Assembly (NCBI GenBank): GCA_900539345.1
Contig: UQBS01000007.1
Span: 8,246-72,245, forward strand
DNA from: an uncultured Coriobacteriaceae bacterium
GTDB lineage: Bacteria; Actinomycetota; Coriobacteriia; Coriobacteriales; UMGS124
Length of the DNA stretch: 64,000 nucleotides
Direction of reading: 5' to 3'
Both the position numbers and the translations under genes were made by a program. The stretch's first letter is position 1. Each line of letters starts with the position of its first letter. Under the pieces are notes generated by a model. It saw only the letters and a program-made list of their open reading frames with translations. It searched no databases and was not told where the DNA came from. This document shows positions 6,233 through 46,500 of the stretch, one piece after another.

Positions 6233-6314
6233 GGGCCGAAGGGCTGTTCAGGCGCAGTTTTTCGGCGCGGGTTATGCGCCGAAACTGTTTGAGCACTGAA
6301 CAGCCCTTCGGCCC
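6233..6314 (+). repeat. Family-B long hairpin element, copy B2
   Basis: A perfect 19-bp inverted repeat, GGGCCGAAGGGCTGTTCAG / CTGAACAGCCCTTCGGCCC, encloses GCGCAGTTTTT-[CGGCGC gggttat GCGCCG]-AAACTGTTTGAGCA. The core is shared with copy B1. Confidence 0.8.
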
Positions 6315-11372: not shown

Positions 11373-11565
11373 CGAGCGCTTGAGGGAAGGAGGGTATCCT
11401 ACGCCTGCCCAAGTCCTCGTACCGAGGGCAGCGGGAAACCGGGGCACGGGGCGCTTCGCGCCTTGTGCCCCTTCCCTTGCCCTCACTGCGGGGGACAGGC
11501 TTCGGAAACCCTCCTTCCACGCACGTCTATCCTGTAAGAAGCGTTTAATCAACCCGCGCAACGCC

Positions 11566-11832
11566 GCGCATCAGGTTCCGCGACCCATTAAAAAGCAGGC
11601 TCTCAGGCGCAAGGCGCGCAGGTGCGATGTGCGCGGTGCGGGCCTTTGGCCTACTGGAGTACATGAGGCACCGTGCATGGAGCGCTCTTTGCGACAAGTC
11701 CCGTAGAGAACGCGGCGGATCGGGTTCCGCAATCCACTAAAAAGCAGGTTCTCGTCCGCAAGGCGTCCAGAGGCGATGCGTACTGGAGTACGTGAGCCTC
11801 TGGAGAACGCAGCGGACGAGGTTCTGCATCAC
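11566..11832 (+). repeat. Family-A modular hairpin repeat, locus A1 (a 3' fragment, a long unit and a short unit)
   Basis: The short unit spans 11736-11832. Its parts are ACTAAAAAGCAGGTTCT, CGTCCGC, AAGGCG, TCCAGAGGC, GATGCGTACTGGAGTACGTGA, GCCTCTGGA, GAACGCA, GCGGACG and AGGTTCTGCATCAC. It abuts the stop codon at 11833. Confidence 0.85.
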
Positions 11833-12228
11833 TTACGCGTAGATCTCTTTTTCCACGACGAGGTCGTTCTTGATTTTCCCCACCAGCTTGTTGAGCGCGT
11901 CGATGCAGCGCGGACGGATATCAGCGCCAATCATGACGTACATGATGGAGTCACCCACGTTGAGGGCGCCCTCGTTGAGCCACGTGCGGACGTAGTACAC
12001 GCCAGGCCAGCTGAGAGCCTCCTTCTCAGCGGCGGCCACGCCCTCGGCATCGTAAGAGAACTCAACCTGGGCGACCTCGCCCAGACCCTCAACACCCTCG
12101 CGCACCTGCTGCTTGGGCGTGATGCGCACCACGCCGTTGTGCGTAAGGAACATGCCGCACTGGGCGGCCTTGGGGTCGGCCTTGGCCTCTTTGAGCCAGG
12201 CATCCATCGAAGGTTCGGGCTTTGCCAT
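11833..12228 (-). CDS. MoaE-fold (molybdopterin synthase large-subunit-like) protein
   Basis: GMFLTHNGVVR...EFSYDAEG...GALNVGDSIMYVMIGADIRPRCIDALNKLVGKIKNDLVVEKE follows the MoaE pattern (TFxGxVR ... HRxGxLxxGD ... KE). The likely ATG at 12228 follows GGGAG. No moaD gene is adjacent. Confidence 0.5.
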   Translation of the reverse strand: MAKPEPSMDAWLKEAKADPKAAQCGMFLTHNGVVRITPKQQVREGVEGLGEVAQVEFSYDAEGVAAAEKEALSWPGVYYVRTWLNEGALNVGDSIMYVMIGADIRPRCIDALNKLVGKIKNDLVVEKEIYA

Positions 12229-13435: not shown

Positions 13436-13479
13436 ACCAAAGCGGGGCGCCGCCCGCACACTCCCAAGCAGCGCCCCGC
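13436..13479 (-). terminator. GC-rich hairpin, a possible terminator downstream of clpB and the repeats
   Basis: GCGGGGCGC (13442-13450) pairs with GCGCCCCGC (13471-13479). On the minus strand it is followed by TTTGGT. The T tract is weak. Confidence 0.4.
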
Positions 13480-13501: not shown

Positions 13502-13770
13502 CTTAAAAGCGCAGGTTCTGCATCACTCTAAAACGCAGGTTCTGGCCTGCAAGGCGCGCGATGCCAACGTGCGCGGTGCGGGCCCCTGACCTACTAGAGT
13601 ACTCTAGGCATCGCGCATGGAGCGTTCTTCGCGACAAGTCCCGTGGAGAACGCAGCAGGCCAGGTTCTGCATCCTCTAAAACGCAGGTTCTCAGGCGCAA
13701 GGCGCACGGAGCCGATGTGTACTGGAGTACATGAGGCTCCGTGGAACACAGCGCCTGAGGTTCTGCGTCG
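13502..13770 (+). repeat. Family-A modular hairpin repeat, locus A2 (an uninterrupted flank motif, a long unit and a short unit)
   Basis: The flank motif without a hairpin lies at 13502-13526. The long unit spans 13527-13674 (outer stem GGCCTGC/GCAGGCC, inner stem CGCGATGCC/GGCATCGCG). The short unit spans 13675-13770 (outer stem CAGGCGC/GCGCCTG, inner stem CACGGAGCC/GGCTCCGTG). It abuts the clpB stop codon. Confidence 0.88.
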
Positions 13771-13772
13771 CT

Positions 13773-16427
13773 TTACTCGACCGAGTCGGGCTCGACGGGG
13801 ACGTCTTCGGGGCTGGCCGCCCTCTGCGCACGAGCCTTGGCCGAGGCCTCCTCGTCCTTCTCGACCACAATGTTGCCGTCGTTGTCGACGTCGACGCGCA
13901 CCACGTCGTTCTCAGAGAGCTTGCCGTCGATGATGAGGTTCGCGATGCCGTCGACCACCTTGTTCTGGATGAGACGACGTAGCGGACGGGCGCCAAACGC
14001 CGGATCGAGGCCGCCCAGGCTGAGGGCGTCCATGGCACTGGGCGTCACGGTCATGCTGAGACGCTCGCGAGCAAGGCGTTCGCGCACGTCGTCAAGCTGC
14101 AGGTCGACAATGCGCTCGATGTCGGCGTAGCCCAGCGAGTTGAAGTACACCACATCGTCGATACGGTTGACGAACTCCGGGCGGAAGGCCTGCTTGAGCA
14201 CCTCTTGCATCTTCTGCTGCAGCTCGTCTTTGCCCGTGGTCTCCAGAATGAACTGCGAACCCAGGTTGCTCGTCATGATGATGATGGCGTTCTTGAAGCT
14301 CACCACGCGGCCCTGGCCGTCGGTAAGCCTGCCGTCATCGAGCACCTGGAGCAACACGTTGAAGACGTCGGGGTGCGCCTTCTCAAGCTCGTCGAGCAGC
14401 ACCACGGTGTAGGGATGACGACGTACGGCCTCGGTGAGCTGACCGCCCTCGTCGTAACCCACGTATCCCGGAGGGGCACCGATGAGGCGCTGCACGCTGA
14501 ACTTCTCCATGTACTCGCTCATGTCGATACGCACCATGGCGCGCTCGTCATCGAACAAGGCTTCTGCCAGCGCCTTTGCCAACTCGGTCTTACCGACGCC
14601 GGTGGGACCCATGAACAGGAAGCTGCCCAGGGGACGGTCGGGGTCAGACAAGCCTGCACGAGAACGACGCACGGCGCTCGCCACGGCGTGGACGGCCTCG
14701 TCCTGACCGATGACGCGCTCCTTGAGGTGCTCCTCGAGGTGACGGAGCTTCTCCATGTCGCCTTGCATCATCTTCGACACGGGCACGCCCGTCCAGGCGC
14801 TCACCACAGCGGCGATCTCGTCTGCGGTGACCTCCTCCTTGAGGTTAGCGCCGGCCTCCTGCTTGGCGCGCAGGCGCTGCTCGGCGTCGCGGTAGTCGGC
14901 CTCAAGCTTGGGGATCGTGGAGTAGCGCAGCTCGGAGGCACGCATGAGGTCGCCGGAACGCGTGGCGCGCTCCTCTTCGCTGCGGGCTTCGTCAATCTGG
15001 CTCTTGAGCTGCTGCACCAGGTCGATGATGCCCTTTTCGTTCTGCCAGGCCGCCTTGGCGGCGTCGAGCTTCTCACGGGCATCGGCGATTTCGTGGCGCA
15101 GGGTCTGCAAACGCTCGGCGCTGGCCTCGTCGTCCTCCTTCATGAGCGCCTGCTCCTCGATCTGCATCTGAGTGAGCTGGCGCTCCTGGGCATCGATGTC
15201 GCTGGGCATGGAGTCGAGCTCCATCCTCAGGCGGCTGCCGGCCTCATCGACCAGGTCGATTGCCTTGTCGGGCAGGAAACGGTCGGTGATGTAGCGGTCG
15301 GAGAGCTGGGCTGCGGCCACAAGCGCAGAGTCGGTGATACGCACGCCGTGGTGGATCTCGTACTTCTCCTTGATGCCACGCAGGATGGAGATGGTGTCCT
15401 CCACCGTGGGCTGGTCGACCATGACGGGCTGGAAACGCCTGGCAAGAGCCGCGTCCTTCTCGATGTACTTGCGGTACTCGTCAAGCGTCGTGGCGCCGAT
15501 GGCATGCAGCTCGCCACGGGCAAGGGCGGGCTTCAAGATGTTGGAGGCATCCATGGAGCCACCCGAGGCGCCGGCACCCACGATGGTGTGCAGCTCATCG
15601 ATGAACAGGATGACGTTGCCGCCAGCCGCCGCGACCTCCTTGAGCACGGCCTTCAGGCGGTCCTCGAACTCGCCACGGTATTTGGCGCCTGCCACCATGG
15701 CGCTCATGTCGAGCTCGATGAGCTCGCGGTCACGCAGGGTCGAAGGCACGTCGCCGGCAACGATGCGCTGCGCAAGGCCCTCGACGATAGCCGTCTTGCC
15801 GGTACCGGGCTCACCGATGAGCACGGGGTTGTTCTTCGTGCGGCGCGAAAGCACCTGCACCGTGTGACGAATCTCCTCGACACGACCGATGACCGGGTCG
15901 AGCTTGCCCTCGCGGGCCAGGTCGGTCAGGTTGCGACCATACTGCTTGAGCGCCTCGAACTGGGGCTTGCTCTCGGCGTCGGTCACGCGCGAGTCACCGC
16001 GGAGCTGCTCGTAGGCGTCCTGCACGCGCTTGGCCGTCACGCCGGCGTCGTTCAGGATGCGACCGGCGTCGCCCTTGTCGCCTGCAAGCGCGATAAGCAG
16101 GTGCTCGGTGGTGGCAAACGAGTCGCCCATCTTCGAGGCGAGCTTCTGCGAAGCGTCGAGCACGCGCATGAGCCCCTGGCTCATGCCGGCCTGGGAGCCG
16201 CCGCTCACGCGGGGCTGGCTTGCCAGCTTCTCGTCAACAGTAGCCTTGAGCTGGGCGGGGTCGGCGCCCACACGCTCGATGATGGCATCGAGGTTGCGCT
16301 CGGAGCTCTCAAGCAGGGCCTTCAGAAGGTGAAGGCTTGTGACCTCGGAAGCCTCCATGTCGGAGGCAACGCCCACGGCTTCCTGCAAAGCGGCCTGGGC
16401 GGTCATTGCGAATTTGTCAATCCTCAT
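13773..16427 (-). CDS. clpB: ATP-dependent chaperone / disaggregase ClpB
   Basis: The product has two AAA+ modules ([15 protein letters not shown] and [15 protein letters not shown]), a middle coiled coil and a Clp N-domain. The likely ATG at 16427 gives MRIDKF. The ORF frame overlaps the hspR stop codon. Confidence 0.96.
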
Positions 16428-16432
16428 ATGTG

Positions 16433-16882
16433 TCACCCATCCTTCTCGGTGCCCATATCCTTCTTCTCAAGGTCGGACACTCCCGCCAGCAGCGCCAGCG
16501 GGCTCTTACCGCCCTCGGCATACGGCATGAGGGCGGTGATGGTCTCGCGCATCCGGTACTCGTGGACCTGCTCGCGCAGTTCCTTGATCTCGGCGCGCAA
16601 CTGCTCTATCTCGGCGTCGCGCTCATCCATCTGGGTCTTCATGTCCAGGATGCGCACAACGCCAGCAAGGTTGATGCCCTCGTCGGTCAGACGACCAATG
16701 AGGTCGAGCCGCTCGATATCGGCCTGTGAGTACAGGCGCGTGTTGCCCGAGCTGCGGCGCGGGTTCACCAGACCCTTGCTCTCGTAGATGCGCAGGGTCT
16801 GGGGATGCATGCCGGTGAGCTCGGCGGCAACCGAGATCATGTACAGCGGGCGGTTTCTCTCGTCGTCGTTTCTCGAGGGCAT
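16433..16882 (-). CDS. hspR: MerR-family heat-shock repressor HspR
   Basis: [46 protein letters not shown] is a MerR helix-turn-helix. The gene sits in the classical actinobacterial position after dnaJ. Confidence 0.85.
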
Positions 16883-17845: not shown

Positions 17846-17875
17846 GTTGAAGAACACCCTCCTTCCAAGAGTAGG

Positions 17876-18026
17876 TTGCGGAACCTGATGCGCCACGTTG
17901 CGCGATACCTAGAGTACCGCCGTAGGCCAAAGGCCCGCACCGCGCACGTCGGCATCGCGCGCCTTGCGCATCAGAACCCGCGTCGGTAAAGGCGAAACCT
18001 GATGCGCGGTCTTGCGCAGGCATCAG
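17876..18026 (-). repeat. Family-A modular hairpin repeat, locus A3 (inverted orientation; a long-type unit and a degenerate mini unit)
   Basis: The parts are GCGGAACCT, GATGCGC, ..., GGCCAAAGGCCCGCACCGCGCAC, ..., GCGCATC and AGAACCCGCGT. The middle module is the reverse complement of the A1/A2 long-unit module GTGCGCGGTGCGGGCCTTTGGCC. It lies between grpE and dnaJ. Confidence 0.8.
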
Positions 18027-20804: not shown

Positions 20805-20886
20805 TCCCGTTTACTGCGGGGGCATACAAAATCTAAGTCTCTTCATATAACATTTTTTGATTGTGATTCTGAAAGGGCTTCAAACC

Positions 20887-21453
20887 ATGGGAAACGGGAC
20901 AAAAACGCAGGCACAAGGCACAAGACTGCCCGAAGCCAATGTGGAGGCCATCTACATGGAGCGCACAAACGACGAACTCGAGAGCCTCGCCGAGGAAGGG
21001 TTCATCACATCGGGCAACGCGTTTTGCCGCGTGCTGCTCGTAAAGGGAAGGCCCGGCCCGGCAGAGGCAGGCGGCGGCGACTTGCTGTCCGGCGCAGACG
21101 GCGAAGCCCTGCGGGCGGGGCTTGCGCGGCTGGGCTGGAAAGAGGGTGACTGGGCCGGCCTCGCGACGTTTTTAGGACAGGACGGCTTTCCCCAGGCCGA
21201 CCCGGCCGACCTGGCCGTGGCCGTGGAGGTGTTCGACCCAGAGTGCGTCGTGGCGCTCGACTCCCCCGCCGCCCGCAACCTGGCCCTTGCCTGGGGGCTG
21301 CCCGAGCCGCTGCCGGCAGGCAAGGTCGAGCGCGTGTTCGGCCGGCGCGTCTTGGCAATGGGAGGCTTCGAGGCTGCCTTGGCCAGCCAAGACGGGAAGA
21401 AAGAGATGTGGCGCCGACTTCGCCAGCTCCCCCCTCTCCCCTCCCCTTTATAG
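20887..21453 (+). CDS. Uracil-DNA-glycosylase-superfamily-like protein with degenerate active-site motifs
   Basis: CRVLLVKGRPGPAEAGGGDLLSGADGEALRAGLARLGW...PECVVALDSPAARNL is collinear with family-4 UDG (VGEAPGxxED..GxPFvGxAGxLL...vvaLG..A). However, GEAPG and PF are replaced. The start codon is uncertain. Confidence 0.45.
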   Translation: MGNGTKTQAQGTRLPEANVEAIYMERTNDELESLAEEGFITSGNAFCRVLLVKGRPGPAEAGGGDLLSGADGEALRAGLARLGWKEGDWAGLATFLGQDGFPQADPADLAVAVEVFDPECVVALDSPAARNLALAWGLPEPLPAGKVERVFGRRVLAMGGFEAALASQDGKKEMWRRLRQLPPLPSPL

Positions 21454-21455
21454 AG

Positions 21456-21654
21456 TTGCGGAACCTCGTCCGCTGCGTTCCGCGGAGTCTCATGTACGTC
21501 CAGTACACATCGACTCCGCGCGCCTTGCGGACGAGAACCCGCGTTTTGGCAGGCGGAACCTGATGCGCTGGCATGTGGTACGCTGCGGCTCCGCGCGCTT
21601 TGCGCATCAGAACCTGCGTTTTGGTGGGCGGAACCTGGCCTGCTGCGTTTTGGG
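21456..21654 (-). repeat. Family-A modular hairpin repeat, locus A4 (inverted orientation; a short unit, a truncated unit and a fragment)
   Basis: The short unit spans 21458-21549 (outer stem CGTCCGC/GCGGACG, inner stem CGCGGAGTC/GACTCCGCG, apical TCATGTACGTCCAGTACACATC). A GATGCGC...GCGCATC unit and a GGCCTGC fragment follow. The locus starts 3 nt after the TAG stop codon at 21451-21453. Confidence 0.85.
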
Positions 21655-21727
21655 TGTGAGATACAGCAAAGGCCGCTCGGTTGCCCGGGCGGCCTTTGGG
21701 TGGTGCAGATGTCCTAGAAAGTCGAAG

Positions 21728-21963: not shown

Positions 21964-22140
21964 ACCAAAACGCGGCCCCCGCACAACACGCGAGCGTCCG
22001 CTCAAGACGCGGCTCTCACGCGGCGCATCAGGTTCCGCCCATTAAAACGCGGGTTCTCGTCCGCAAGGCGCCGGGAGGCGATGCGTACACATGGTACGTG
22101 AGCCTCCCGGGAACGCAGCGGACGAGGTTCCGCTACATCC
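21964..22140 (+). repeat. Family-A modular hairpin repeat, locus A5 (a degenerate unit and a short unit)
   Basis: The short unit spans 22041-22140. Its parts are ATTAAAACGCGGGTTCT, CGTCCGC, AAGGCG, CCGGGAGGC, GATGCGTACACATGGTACGTGA, GCCTCCCGG, GAACGCA, GCGGACG and AGGTTCCGC. It abuts the stop codon at 22143. Confidence 0.85.
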
Positions 22141-22142
22141 TA

Positions 22143-22337
22143 CTAGTCGTCGTCGTCGCAGATCTCGGTGATGGCGTTGACCGGACACTCCTCCTGGCAC
22201 TCGCCGCAGCCCTTGCACTCGGACTCGTCAACGACGGTGCAGAAGCCGTCGTCGATCTCGATGGCGCCCGTGACGCACACGTCAACGCAGGCGCCGCAGC
22301 CGATGCACTCGTCAGTGTCAATAATGGGGTAAGGCAT
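22143..22337 (-). CDS. 2x[4Fe-4S] ferredoxin (64 aa), paralog of 21728..21910
   Basis: The ATG at 22337 follows GAGAGGAG. The motifs are CIGCGACVDVCV and CKGCGECQEECP, and the protein has an acidic DDDD tail. Confidence 0.9.
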   Translation of the reverse strand: MPYPIIDTDECIGCGACVDVCVTGAIEIDDGFCTVVDESECKGCGECQEECPVNAITEICDDDD

Positions 22338-22451
22338 GAGTCTCTCCTCTCTCAACGGGCACAGGGCCCGCAAATACTTTCCGAACACGGTAGCCCGTAT
22401 TCCCGGCTGCAGTGCCTCCATACATCGCAGCCGTCAACGGCGGGTAGGGTA

Positions 22452-43414: not shown

Positions 43415-43591
43415 CTAGTTGGGGAGTAGGGCCCCGAGTGACGGGCTCCCCTACTAGGTCAGGCTGAAAGACTCAAACTCAGCGGAGCCGAGACCCGAGC
43501 CGGTACCAGATACAAAGGCAGGCTCGGAGCTTGCAGACTCGGAGGGCACGGCGGGCTGCACGGGTTCGCCGGGGACCGCAGGCCCGGAGGG

Positions 43592-46500
43592 CTACTCGGG
43601 CTCAGCAGACTGCTCGGATTGGTCAGGGTTCGCAGGCGTGGCGGGCTCACTGGGCTGGTCCGGAATCGCAGGTTCTGCAGGCTGCTCGGACTCGCCGGGG
43701 ACCGCAGGCTCGGAGGGCTCGGCGGGATTGCTGGGCTGCTCGGGCTCGGCGGGAGCCGCGGGCTCGCTGGGCTGGTCCGGGTTCGCAGGCTCGCCAGGCT
43801 GACCGGGCCCTGCGGGCTCGCTGGGCTGCTCGGGCTCGGCGGGCTGCTCGGGCTCGGAGGGCTCGTCCTTGGCGCCCGCGCCCTCGAGGTCGGCGGGCAG
43901 GCCGGTGGCGCCGAGCCAGGCGGTCAGGGCTTCGAGACAATCGGCACCCAGGGGGCAGCCGCGAAGCGCCAGGCGCTCCAGGGCGGGCATGCAGGCGGGG
44001 TCGAGCGAGGAGACCTGGGTCCCCGAGAGGTCGAGGAAGCGCAGGGCGGAAAGCCCCCCGAGGGCCTCGTCGCCCGCGAGCCTGAGCTCGGCGACGCCGC
44101 TGCCGGAGGCGTCGAGGGAGGCGAGCCCGCAGCCGCGCTCGAGCGAGAGGGACTCCAGGCGCGTGCGGCCGTCGGGGTCGGGGGTGCCGGCCTGGGCGTC
44201 GCCGTCCCAGGAGAGGTCGGCGCTCACGACGTCCGCGCCCTCGATCTGGGCGGGAAGCGCGAGGTCCGTGGCCTCTCCCCTGTAGGCCGTCACATACACG
44301 CCCGCGCCCACGTAGCGGCCGCCGAGCTCGGCGTACTCGCGGTCGAGCACGTAGGCCTCGCCCGCGGCGTCGACGGCACCCTCGGGCACGGCGAGGTAGG
44401 TGAGGCCGTTGAGCTCACCGGCAACGGCCGCGGGGGCCGCAGCGGGCTGCTGGGCCACGTCGGCGACAGGTCTGTCCTCAGCCTCGGCGTAGGGGCTCAG
44501 CTCGCCACCCGCCAGCTTGTCCATCTGGGTGAATATCTTGGCAGCCTGGGCGCGAGTCGCTGTGCCCTGCGGCAGCAGCAGCGGCTTTGCGTCGCCCACA
44601 AATCCGGTGAGCACGCCCGACGCACCGCACCACACCATCGCGTCGCGAGCCCAAGGTGAGACCGCCCACGTGTCCGAGGCGGCATTGAAGGAGGCCGAGG
44701 GCGGGTTGGCCGTCTTGACGCCGGCCCACTTGGCGAAGCGGTAGGCCATCGTGGCGAGCTCCTCGCGGGTCACCTCGTTGTCGGGCAGGAAGCACCCGGC
44801 GTTGGGGCCGGAGGTGTAGCCGGTGACGATGCCCTTGGACATGCACCAGGCAACGGCCTCATAAGCCCAGTGGCCCTGAACATCCCAAAGCGCACCGGAC
44901 GAGCAGGCAGGGCTGCCAGCGACGCGCCACAGCACGGTAGCCACCATGGCGCGGGTCACCGCGGAGTCGGGCTCGAAGTAGCCCGTGTAGTAGATACCGG
45001 CGTCGTCCTTCAAGCCGGTCATGAGGCCGCGCTTTGCCGCCTGGGTCACCCAGTCGGTGTACCACTCACCTGCCGGCACGTCCTTGAAGCTCGTGGGCGG
45101 CACCTGCTCCCACTTGGCGTAGAGCGTGAGGTTGCCCTTCACGGCCGAGTTGAAGTCATAAGACCTGGTAAGACCCTTGTCGGCATACCAGCCCTTGAAA
45201 TAGAAGCCTGACTTCGCGGGGTCGGCAGGCCTGGATGCCTTGGCGCCGTACGTGACGGACTGCGCTTTCACGGACGTGCCGCCGTTCGAGTTGAAGGTCA
45301 CCGTGTACCCGTTGGGTGCCCACTTGGCATAAAGTGTGATGTTGCCCTTAACCGGCGCATTAAAGTTGTATGCCTTCGTCAGCCCCTTGTCGGAGTACCA
45401 GCCCTTGAAGGTGTGACCGGCGCGCGTGGGGTTGGCAGGCTTGGACACTGCCTTGCCCTCTTCCACAGAGGCCGTCGTCTGGGAGCATGTGCCTCCGTTG
45501 GCGTTGAAGACCACCGTGTACGTTGCGAGGTAGCGCCACTTTGCATACACGGTCTTGTTGGACGTGATGGGCACCTTGAAATCAAACGGCGTGGTGCAAG
45601 AGCCGGTGGTGTACCAGCCGTCAAAGACATAGCCGCCACGCGTGGGGTCAGCAGGCTTCTTGAGCGTGTCTCCGCTCCTCACCTTCTGCGTCGAAATGAC
45701 GTCGACATCATAGTTCCACCTGTTATATGTGCCAAAGGTGACGGTGTAGTACCGATAGGCAACGGGGGTGGTGACGGACTCCAGGATGCTTCCGCCGCCC
45801 ACGCTCGCACTCAGCGTGAAGCTGCCCGGCGCCTTGCCACTCACCGTGACGGTCTTCGGATTGAAGCTTGCCGCCGAGGAGCCGTCGAGCGACCAGGTCA
45901 CACAGCTGTCGTCAATCTTCGACACCCAGCTCGCATAGGTGCCGCCGATGTGCGCGAACAGGCCGAAGCGCTGCGACTCGCCGACACCCAGGCTCTCGTT
46001 TGCGGCAACGATGCTCGTACCAGCCGCGTTGACCAGGTACACCGAGAACGTGGCACCCAGCTCTGCCAGGGCGGAGGACATGTAGTTGACATCCATGACC
46101 AGCGTCTTGTCGGCCTGCTTATATGCCGGGGACGCGGCAGTCGTGCCAAAGCACTGAACCCAGAACGTGCGGCCCGACACCGTGACGCAACCGATGCCGA
46201 TGGAGGTGCTGTCCGCGCTCAGGATATTCGCCTTGTGGCCCGAAGAATTCATCCACTGGTCCATGACGCCCTGAGCCGTTGTGGAGCCCACGGCGATGTT
46301 CTCGCGGGTCATCTTGGAACTGGCAGTGAAGCACTTTTGACCCGTGGGGCGTGTGTGGTCGAACACGATGGAGGTCTCGGCGGCGCGCTGCATTGCGACC
46401 GCCAAGAGGTCGGTATCCATCGTGAGCGCGGACAGTCCCTGCTTGGCGCGCTCCTGATTTACCAGGTCGAGCACTTCGAACGCCTTAGAGTAGCTTACTT

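Follow-up and report, generated by a model that had tools for sequence, protein, structure and literature searches.

Within a 64,000-nucleotide stretch of contig UQBS01000007.1 from an uncultured Coriobacteriaceae bacterium (hereafter the window), an array of long hairpin repeats lies directly downstream of clpB. The gene was called as an open reading frame (ORF) on the minus strand, with the Pfam domains Clp_N, AAA and ClpB_D2-small on the called gene, and its stop codon, TAA (13773-13775), is 6 nt away from the right (R) end of the last repeat unit. On the far side of the repeats stands a G+C-rich hairpin, and the array is therefore placed between the clpB stop codon and a terminator-like structure. 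The features of the locus are as follows.

13442-13479, minus strand: terminator-like G+C-rich hairpin, then TTTGGT; downstream of the array in the sense of clpB and identical in all strain alleles.
13502-13526, plus strand: collapsed distal unit (the leader), a left flank (L) CTTAAAAGCGCAGGTTCT joined to a right flank (R) AGGTTCTGCATCAC via one heptamer, with no hairpin.
13527-13674, plus strand: long unit, 148 nt, with a hairpin fold and motif matches.
13675-13772, plus strand: short unit of canonical form (96 nt and a linker), scored at 99.8 bits by the covariance model (E 1e-23) and folding at -57.3 kcal/mol (z -7.5).
13773-16436, minus strand: clpB.

The layout is exactly that described in an original prediction from the bare sequence, namely a continuous motif at 13502-13526 (CTTAAAAGCGCAGGTTCTGCATCAC) followed by two units, 13527-13674 (148 nt) and 13675-13770 (96 nt), each containing a long inverted repeat bracketed by the heptamer AGGTTCT. 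In either unit the inverted repeat is preceded by ...GCAGGTTCT or ...TCTAAAACGCAGGTTCT and followed by AGGTTCTGC.... Deletion of the hairpin and one heptamer yielded TCTAAAACGCAGGTTCTGCATCC from one unit, identical to the continuous motif in 22 of 23 columns, and TCTAAAACGCAGGTTCTGCGTCG from the other (20 of 23), which agrees with the roughly 20 of 23 matches predicted. These motifs are far more frequent in the window than expected: GCAGGTTCT matched 8 times versus 0.61 expected, AGGTTCTGC 7 times versus 0.48, and an 18-mer with up to 3 mismatches 6 times versus 0.02. The same element occupies five window loci, 11556-11832 (+), 13502-13772 (+), 17875-18003 (-), 21455-21651 (-) and 22003-22140 (+), among which the predicted inverted arrangement is present at 21455-21651.

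The two clpB units share one plan. The long unit runs from L (13527-13543) through stem s1 GGCCTGC (13544-13550, partner 13654-13661), AAGGCG (13551-13556), stem s2 CGCGATGCC, optional module I (13572-13591), optional module III (13616-13645) and GAGAACGCAGC (13646-13656) to R, AGGTTCTGC (13662-13670). In other strains the counterpart unit may have or lack modules I and III. The short unit comprises L (13675-13691), s1 CAGGCGC (13692-13698), AAGGCG, s2 CACGGAGCC, the apex GATGTGTAC-TGGA-GTACATGAG, then GAACACAGC, s1' GCCTG, R AGGTTCTGC (13758-13766) and the linker GTCGCT (13767-13772). Folded as RNA, the long unit reached -80.1 kcal/mol (z -6.5) with its heptamers paired, and the leader folded no better than shuffled sequence (z -0.7).

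An exact-pattern scan over one genome per species returned 94 stretches, three of them chance matches; the remainder came from ~9 uncultured human-gut metagenome-assembled genomes (MAGs) of Coriobacteriales/Coriobacteriaceae, two of which are bins with other taxonomic labels. All related sequences are metagenome assemblies, and gene calls were crude (long ORFs with high G+C at third codon positions). In the scan loci and the window together, nhmmer hits numbered 241 and fell into 126 arrays, each of 1-7 units, with the family dispersed over more than 100 loci. No copies were found in the viral contigs, plasmids and phages searched. The family is chromosomal, vertical and lineage-restricted. 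The two oddly labelled bins, assigned to Acutalibacteraceae and Alistipes onderdonkii (CAVEWV01: L016, L019, L021 and others; CAVJGP01: L018, L038, L071 and others), hold dozens of copies, and these contigs are probably mis-binned in public records. Higher-order duplication was also seen within arrays. In L071 (3679-4287, minus strand) identical units recur with a 365-nt period, and in L009 (2101-2485, plus strand) a half unit is followed by CCCCGACTGCCC and a full long unit, the whole set occurring twice.

Statistics on single units were taken from 182 regex-complete units of the ~9 related gut MAGs. The typical unit is an 85-nt imperfect hairpin with an A-rich linker of 10-13 nt. In its own orientation it reads yTAAAAC; GCrGGTTCT (L); s1, 7 variable nt; AAGGCG; s2, 9 variable nt; GAyGyGTAC; a loop of 4-5 nt; GTACryrAG; s2'; GrGAACGCrGC; s1'; AGGTTCyGC (R); and the linker to the next unit. 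The basal stem has 9 bp, of which the AGGTTCT heptamers form the inner part, and within it GGTTC faces GGTTC as a conserved G.T/T.T/T.G bubble. Further up, AAGGCG lies opposite GAACGCAGC as an asymmetric conserved internal loop. Three optional modules occur: a 20-nt module 5' of the apex (13572-13591 in the window), in other units its complement 3' of the apex, and a 30-nt side hairpin before GAACGC (window 13616-13645). One-sided 20-nt modules leave a 20-nt bulge in the hairpin. The family is a mosaic, with 162 distinct cores among the 182 units and mismatched s1 arms in 49 (27%).

Evidence for the hairpin came from both covariation and folding. Across 88 distinct short units, a structure in which the heptamers take part was paired in 96% of cells, with 15 pairs changed on both sides in 412 cells. 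Covariation measured 0.406, against 0.171 after shuffling (0 of 500 shuffles) and no more than 0.084 when partners were slid. Thermodynamic folding, an independent test, likewise puts the heptamers in the stem. Both strands fold strongly (z -5.6 to -8.3 for short units; -2.9 for the gene-sense strand of the long unit), with energies on the units' own strand, antisense to the abutting gene, of -57.3, -80.1 and -61.5 kcal/mol versus -53.0, -65.8 and -53.4 kcal/mol on the gene-sense strand. In L008 (4422-4482, minus strand) and L018 (4491-4743, minus strand), the family's inner core (AAGGCG, apex, CAACGCGGC) stands within a different 10-bp outer stem, GCGCTGTGGC/GCCACAGCGC, and lacks the GGTTC flanks; judged by such sequences, the inner core seems separable from L and R.

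Alleles of the locus were collected from ~20 strains through look-ups of identical DnaK, Fur, MoaE-like and HEAT proteins. At clpB we found at least 10 alleles with one common leader, distributed by unit number as follows.

No unit: L100 and L104, in which the leader is directly followed by ATCACT-CTA-clpB.
One unit: L109, L111 and L117.
Two units: the window, L108, L110, L116, L114 and L115, and with the order swapped L105 and L107.

Filled and empty sites, for which the original prediction had proposed a search, thus exist as 0, 1 or 2 units at clpB, and the neighbouring locus (11556-11832) covers a similar range, one of its six or more alleles being empty. The clpB locus has only two stem types; within them the 20- and 30-nt modules come and go, and the arms are chimeric in two alleles. 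Six or more unit stem types are seen at the neighbouring locus, where leader stems differ as well. Stop codon and linker co-vary among strains at clpB, TAA occurring with GTCGCT and TAG with ATCACT.

The clearest single event separates L108 from L117, which differ by 4 mismatches in 5.3 kb and by a clean 96-nt unit directly after TAA. The indel (L108 970-1065) has its boundaries immediately after TAA and after GTTTTA; the microhomology amounts to 1 nt, and a G/A difference stands beside the junction. By parsimony the L117 state is a loss, the two-unit allele being common to L110, L116 and the window. Polarisation by flanking single nucleotide polymorphisms resolved two strain clades 4-6% apart; the empty clpB allele had no close filled relative with data, and only the L108/L117 pair was polarised. 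Elsewhere, L120, with flanks 99% identical, carries within unit 11735-11832 the 20-nt module I CGCGGTGCGGGCCTTTGGCC that is absent from the window's unit, and L118, with identical flanks, has a scaffold gap (a run of N) at the position of this module. L003 (98% identical) lacks the middle unit of 21455-21651 and has three units, two more than the window, at 22003-22140. Collectively, these alleles show that turnover by gain and loss of whole units and internal modules outpaces point mutation, and that patchwork exchange among units gives rise to chimeric units and altered module content. Neighbouring units share the same s1 stem type far less often than expected (5 versus 20.2 +/- 3.7). The paucity of homotypic neighbours could reflect either their purging or the acquisition of foreign units.

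Decay at the distal end is a further regularity. The gene-distal start of the array is an R-type unit remnant in 95 of 112 arrays, and most of the others begin with a degenerate remnant. Remnants take the form of ...GAACGCAGC-s1'-R, of L+s1+s1'+R (22003-22038) or of L fused to R (13502-13526), and breakpoints vary between loci. The clpB leader is nearly unchanged in all of the at least 10 alleles, including the zero-unit allele. It is best read as an old unit minus its hairpin, lost by deletion between two direct copies of GGTTCT, which is the one sense in which the "precise excision" of the original prediction applies. REPIN remnants left in place after excision have been described (PMC3337134), and the clpB leader parallels them. 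A local-duplication test, asking how often the leader stem matches the next unit, gave 16 versus 10.9 expected and was not significant.

Arrays are placed with precision relative to genes. In 82 of 111 terminal units (74%), the stop codon of an opposite-strand ORF lies 0-12 nt (mode 6) from the R end, versus 1.5% of random positions, and array orientation is fixed relative to the abutting gene. The type of stop codon was considered as an insertion target and rejected, TAG, TAA and TGA standing beside arrays 27, 24 and 6 times against a background of 139, 153 and 43, with no preference. Arrays lie between the stop codon of the gene and its native terminator-like hairpin and therefore occupy the 3' untranslated region (UTR). 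Read in gene sense, each unit is a hairpin followed by a GUUUUAG-like sequence. Units were nonetheless rejected as canonical terminators: by the criterion of a G+C-rich hairpin directly followed by a U-tract (at least 5 T in 8), a simple scan calls no units, their tails being GTTTTAG-like with 3-5 T. Its only calls are the native hairpin past the clpB array and minor incidental stems in leaders and at one unit end. The arrays would be co-transcribed as the 3' UTR of the gene, contributing long hairpins with GUUUU after each, which by analogy with REPs located <16 nt from a stop codon probably act on mRNA 3'-end stability, read-through or attenuation, or release of terminating ribosomes. REPs this close to a stop codon are reported to cause ribosome stalling and reduced translation (Liang, Rudd and Deutscher 2015, as cited in a passage of PMC12306157). 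If this E. coli effect on terminating ribosomes applies here, where most arrays are within 12 nt of stop codons, expression of clpB, the ferredoxin gene and others could change.

The closest known systems are the REPINs and REP doublets associated with RAYT in Pseudomonas and Enterobacteria (PMC3116915, PMC3337134). In common with these, the present units are long hairpins with two conserved inverted arms and a more variable centre, occur as hundreds of extragenic copies and in tandem clusters of up to about five, leave decayed or excised remnants in place, have A- and T-runs in their flanks and are inherited vertically within a restricted lineage. For REPINs, tandem clusters and excision remnants are on record and the A/T flanks have been read as terminator co-option, and how REPIN/BIME clusters come to be arranged in tandem is stated to lack a mechanistic explanation (PMC3337134). 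Unlike REPINs, the Coriobacteriales family came with no RAYT that we could find in the 0.8 Mb searched and no conserved 5' tetranucleotide of the GTAG type; its stems are the most variable parts (with compensation) whereas loops and bulges are conserved, it has no dominant master sequence (see the core counts above), and its orientation relative to the abutting gene is strict.

Similarly, E. coli REP/BIME clusters are mosaics of palindromic units with defined linkers at gene 3' ends, vary between strains in unit number and, according to a passage of PMC12306157, lie in large share within 15 nt of the upstream stop codon. They differ in that 85-nt hairpins in direct tandem are found here rather than 35-nt REPs (palindromes of 20-40 nt) in alternating orientation, flanks are yTAAAAC and AGGTTCyGC rather than a GTAG-type 5' end, 74% of terminal units are within 12 nt of a stop codon, and the host is a high-G+C Gram-positive lineage. 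Two further families were compared. BOX elements of Streptococcus pneumoniae have a modular boxA-boxB(n)-boxC structure, and MIRUs of Mycobacterium are non-palindromic tandem repeats that arise by local duplication and contain small ORFs. Resemblance extends to optional internal modules (BOX), strain-variable copy number and intergenic positions beside stop codons (MIRU); there is no sequence similarity, and the present units are hairpins whose neighbours are of different types. Correia elements are miniature inverted-repeat transposable elements (MITEs) with TA target duplication. They too are short, non-coding, palindromic and dispersed, with sites filled or empty between strains; here, in contrast, the bracketing repeat is part of the stem, terminal inverted repeats do not stand directly beside a variable duplication, and units form head-to-tail arrays with common junction sequences.

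We therefore consider it likely that the clpB array belongs to a chromosomal family of interspersed, mosaic palindromic repeats specific to this lineage, of the same kind as REP/BIME and REPIN. The family is described as working like REPIN/BIME and is not filed as a member of either, since REP size, GTAG end and alternating orientation do not match and no RAYT was seen in the 0.8 Mb searched. A literature search and Rfam returned no such repeats for Coriobacteriales. What is new is a lineage-specific repeat family for this order, of an already known kind. Turnover would be caused by recombination or gene conversion among the many copies, aided by hairpin-stimulated deletion, and homotypic neighbours may be purged. 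For the seeding of loci, a natural candidate would be a single-strand, hairpin-specific enzyme of the RAYT type, though none was seen. The natural allele series, comprising dozens of gut-metagenome alleles in which units and sub-modules vary between strains that are 99.9-100% identical, bears on how tandem hairpin-repeat clusters form. In practical terms, arrays are hypervariable strain markers and likely assembly breakpoints, given the one scaffold gap inside a unit and many contigs ending in arrays.

Several observations weigh against the REP/BIME-like interpretation. Neither the heterotypic neighbours (5 versus 20.2 +/- 3.7) nor the 1-nt junction homology of the L108/L117 indel is obviously predicted by plain homologous recombination or slippage. 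The units' own strand folds 4-14 kcal/mol better than the gene-sense strand, conserved G.T pairs being the cause, which is awkward for a purely mRNA-level role; the T-runs are short (3-5), and the terminator scan leaves the units uncalled. Transcription of the arrays, its strand and any effect on mRNA are what we infer rather than observe. The census is biased towards consensus-like copies, as the scan pattern and regexes fix parts of L and R. Finally, no RAYT-like gene was found, in a search that covered 0.8 Mb by motif regex only. That search applied regexes for HUH...Y and YxxxNP to six-frame ORFs and gave no RAYT/Y1 candidate, its one loose match being a Bax1-I membrane protein. No gene besides a ferredoxin is flanked by inverted arrays.

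Some of the same observations would suit a REPIN-type non-autonomous single-strand transposon, which we regard as possible, if unlikely. Each unit, with or without its linker, would be cut and pasted in folded form by an HUH/Y1 (RAYT-like) or other structure-specific enzyme acting in trans, and would enter immediately 3' of a TA(A/G) that, read in gene sense, resembles a stop codon. Consistent with this, an invariant G.T/T.T/T.G bubble and an asymmetric conserved loop (AAGGCG versus GAACGCAGC) interrupt an otherwise freely covarying stem. Mismatch bubbles and asymmetric loops are the type of feature read by hairpin-binding recombinases, as at attC sites and in IS200/IS605. The two strands also fold unequally well, and the one-unit indel is clean, falling exactly between TAA and the following linker, where homology is 1 nt. 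Furthermore, at least 6 unit stem types occur at one locus among strains, neighbouring units are heterotypic, unit ends (..TTTTA(G)) mimic the stop codon they follow, and the family is vertical and lineage-restricted like REPINs (PMC3337134). Against these points stand the missing Y1 transposase motif in the 0.8 Mb and a ferredoxin gene as the only one flanked by inverted arrays; an orientation that tracks the abutting gene rather than replication direction; the L117 state, by parsimony a deletion and not an insertion; and patchy conversion within units, which is explicable without an enzyme. A duplication of TA or YTA at unit junctions was rejected, with YTA at the matching position in only ~40% of internal linkers.

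An enzyme-driven single-strand mechanism is kept open because of the mismatch bubble with its asymmetric loop, the better-folding antisense strand and the near-blunt unit indel. It is quite doubtful that the arrays are products of an undescribed, strand-specific hairpin recombination system adding and removing whole heterotypic units at stop codons; by analogy with attC or IS200/IS605 ends, such a system would read the bubble and internal loop on the gene-antisense strand. If true, Actinomycetota would have in these arrays a non-autonomous element of a new class that lacks a RAYT and targets stop codons, and the heterotypic neighbours, near-blunt indel and rapid import of stem types would be signatures of an enzyme, not of general recombination.

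It is similarly improbable that the units are first of all a functional structured RNA, with repetition secondary, whether as a cis-acting 3'-UTR element under selection for its fold (stabiliser, attenuator, RNase III site or protein-binding site) or as a small RNA, antisense or independent, made from the strand that folds better. Compensatory variation is strong, folding energies are very low on both strands, orientation and distance to the stop codon are fixed, and unpaired motifs are conserved; the gene-proximal unit also tends to be the best preserved (s1 perfect in 68% versus 53% in the next unit, p 0.09). On the other side, Rfam gave no window matches at gathering score, and a permissive E-value search gave chance-level matches only (E ≥0.33). 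In the variable stems, G.T mismatches (30) were not significantly more frequent than A.C (20; p 0.2), hence no RNA-strand signature is apparent, and the overall G.T excess stems from invariant positions and is thus uninformative on pairing. Close strains have 0-3 units at the same gene, hence no fixed requirement; the fold is broken by one-sided 20-nt modules, and 27% of units have mismatched arms.

The original prediction was of a small mobile palindrome, comprising only the hairpin, that enters a specific target of roughly 20 nt with duplication of 7 bp, or excises precisely, the continuous motif being an unoccupied or restored target. A repeated palindrome with filled and empty alleles at these sites is indeed present; the 7-bp target duplication is not, and the model as a whole is now very improbable. 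In its favour, AGGTTCT brackets both clpB hairpins, collapse restores 20-22 of 23 positions, and a single slippage between heptamers would yield the continuous motif. Among the 182 units, however, 137 have GGGTTCT as their left heptamer and 142 have AGGTTCC as their right one, and the pair is identical in only 29. The bases that differ face each other in the stem (GC[x]GG versus TTC[y]GC) and covary as a Watson-Crick pair, with G-C in 131 units, A-T in 29, A-C in 16 and G-T in 6 (odds ratio 40, Fisher p 1.5e-16). Both G-C and A-T types are found within single genomes. The units at 13527-13770 are of the A-T type, in which AGGTTCT looks the same on both sides because it is a quasi-palindrome. 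Heptamers inside the basal stem belong to the element's own termini, an outcome that the prediction itself had named as fatal to it, and the 7-bp version is already contradicted. Nearly every hairpin has the 5-nt GGTTC directly repeated on its two sides, and covariation alone therefore leaves room for a site-specific 5-bp duplication.

Motif counts and allele comparisons argue against this 5-bp version too. Across 0.8 Mb of family-bearing DNA the clpB locus alone had the uninterrupted L/R motif, which was also absent from the rest of the window, and the census for free copies of the 20-nt target proposed with the prediction returned none in the 0.8 Mb. The continuous motif is the same fixed distal remnant in every allele, and the empty clpB allele has one motif, not a row of three targets. 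No gain or loss of a hairpin alone was seen in the ~20 strain alleles; changes involved whole units (L, R and linker) or 20- and 30-nt internal modules. Collapsed units at other loci have breakpoints different from those of the clpB leader. The corresponding class, a MITE with target-site duplication, was rejected, as flanks are identical in only a minority of units and unoccupied targets were not found.

An ordinary tandem repeat (a variable number tandem repeat of MIRU-like type) spread by local duplication or slippage, or a CRISPR-like or integron attC-like array, is scarcely credible: copy number does vary among strains and the repeat-"spacer"-repeat layout is superficially CRISPR-like, as predicted, but more than 100 dispersed loci with heterotypic neighbours are the opposite of local duplication, and the "spacers" are palindromic with conserved motifs. 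CRISPR was rejected on these palindromes, on a sole CRISPR-repeat match at chance level (E 9.4) and on the housekeeping nature of the genes called within ~10 kb, cas genes not having been searched for window-wide. attC sites follow stop codons and fold on the gene-antisense strand, as the present units do; R''/R' core sites (RYYYAAC...GTTRRRY) are lacking, unit ends are direct rather than inverted (GTTTTAG at each junction in gene sense), and the arrays contain no cassette ORFs and follow housekeeping genes such as clpB and ferredoxin.

The other four loci of the family in the window are the following.

11556-11832, plus strand: second array, with leader ..GCGCATC-AGGTTCCGC (11556-11581), degenerate long unit (11586-11734), short unit (11735-11827) and linker ATCAC.
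17875-18003, minus strand: single unit with module I and an R-type leader; covariance-model score 55.5 bits.
21455-21651, minus strand: third array, inverted, with unit 21455-21548, internally deleted unit 21553-21625 and leader AAAACGCAGCAGGCCAGGTTCCGC (21628-21651).
22003-22140, plus strand: fourth array, with collapsed unit 22003-22038 (L, s1, s1' and R, hairpin interior lost), full unit 22040-22133 and linker; 102.7 bits.

The second array had been placed downstream of fur; the genes do converge there, but the stop codon that the array abuts is that of a MoaE-like gene (11833-12228, minus strand). The third array starts 4 nt past the TAG of a 198-aa gene (20857-21453, plus strand). The fourth abuts the stop codon of the ferredoxin gene (22143-22421, minus strand), and the native terminator-like hairpin at this locus (21668-21700) again lies beyond the array. 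The stop-codon rule does not hold for the single unit at 17875-18003, which is sense-oriented with the grpE terminator on one side and the ribosome-binding site of dnaJ on the other; this unit is kept at the same position in L003, L079 and L082.

Two further repeats were noted in the window. Imperfect coding-type tandem repeats (..GGCTCGCTGGGCTGGTCCGGnTTCGCAGG..) at 43560-43800 (plus strand), the source of chance matches to the heptamer motif, probably encode a repetitive low-complexity protein. A second, unrelated long-hairpin repeat occurs at 1287-1373 and 6234-6313 (plus strand), where variable outer stems of ~19 bp surround a common core, GCGCAGTTTT[T/G]C..inner hairpin..GAAACTGTTTGAGCA; it has these two copies in the window and none in 117 fetched loci.

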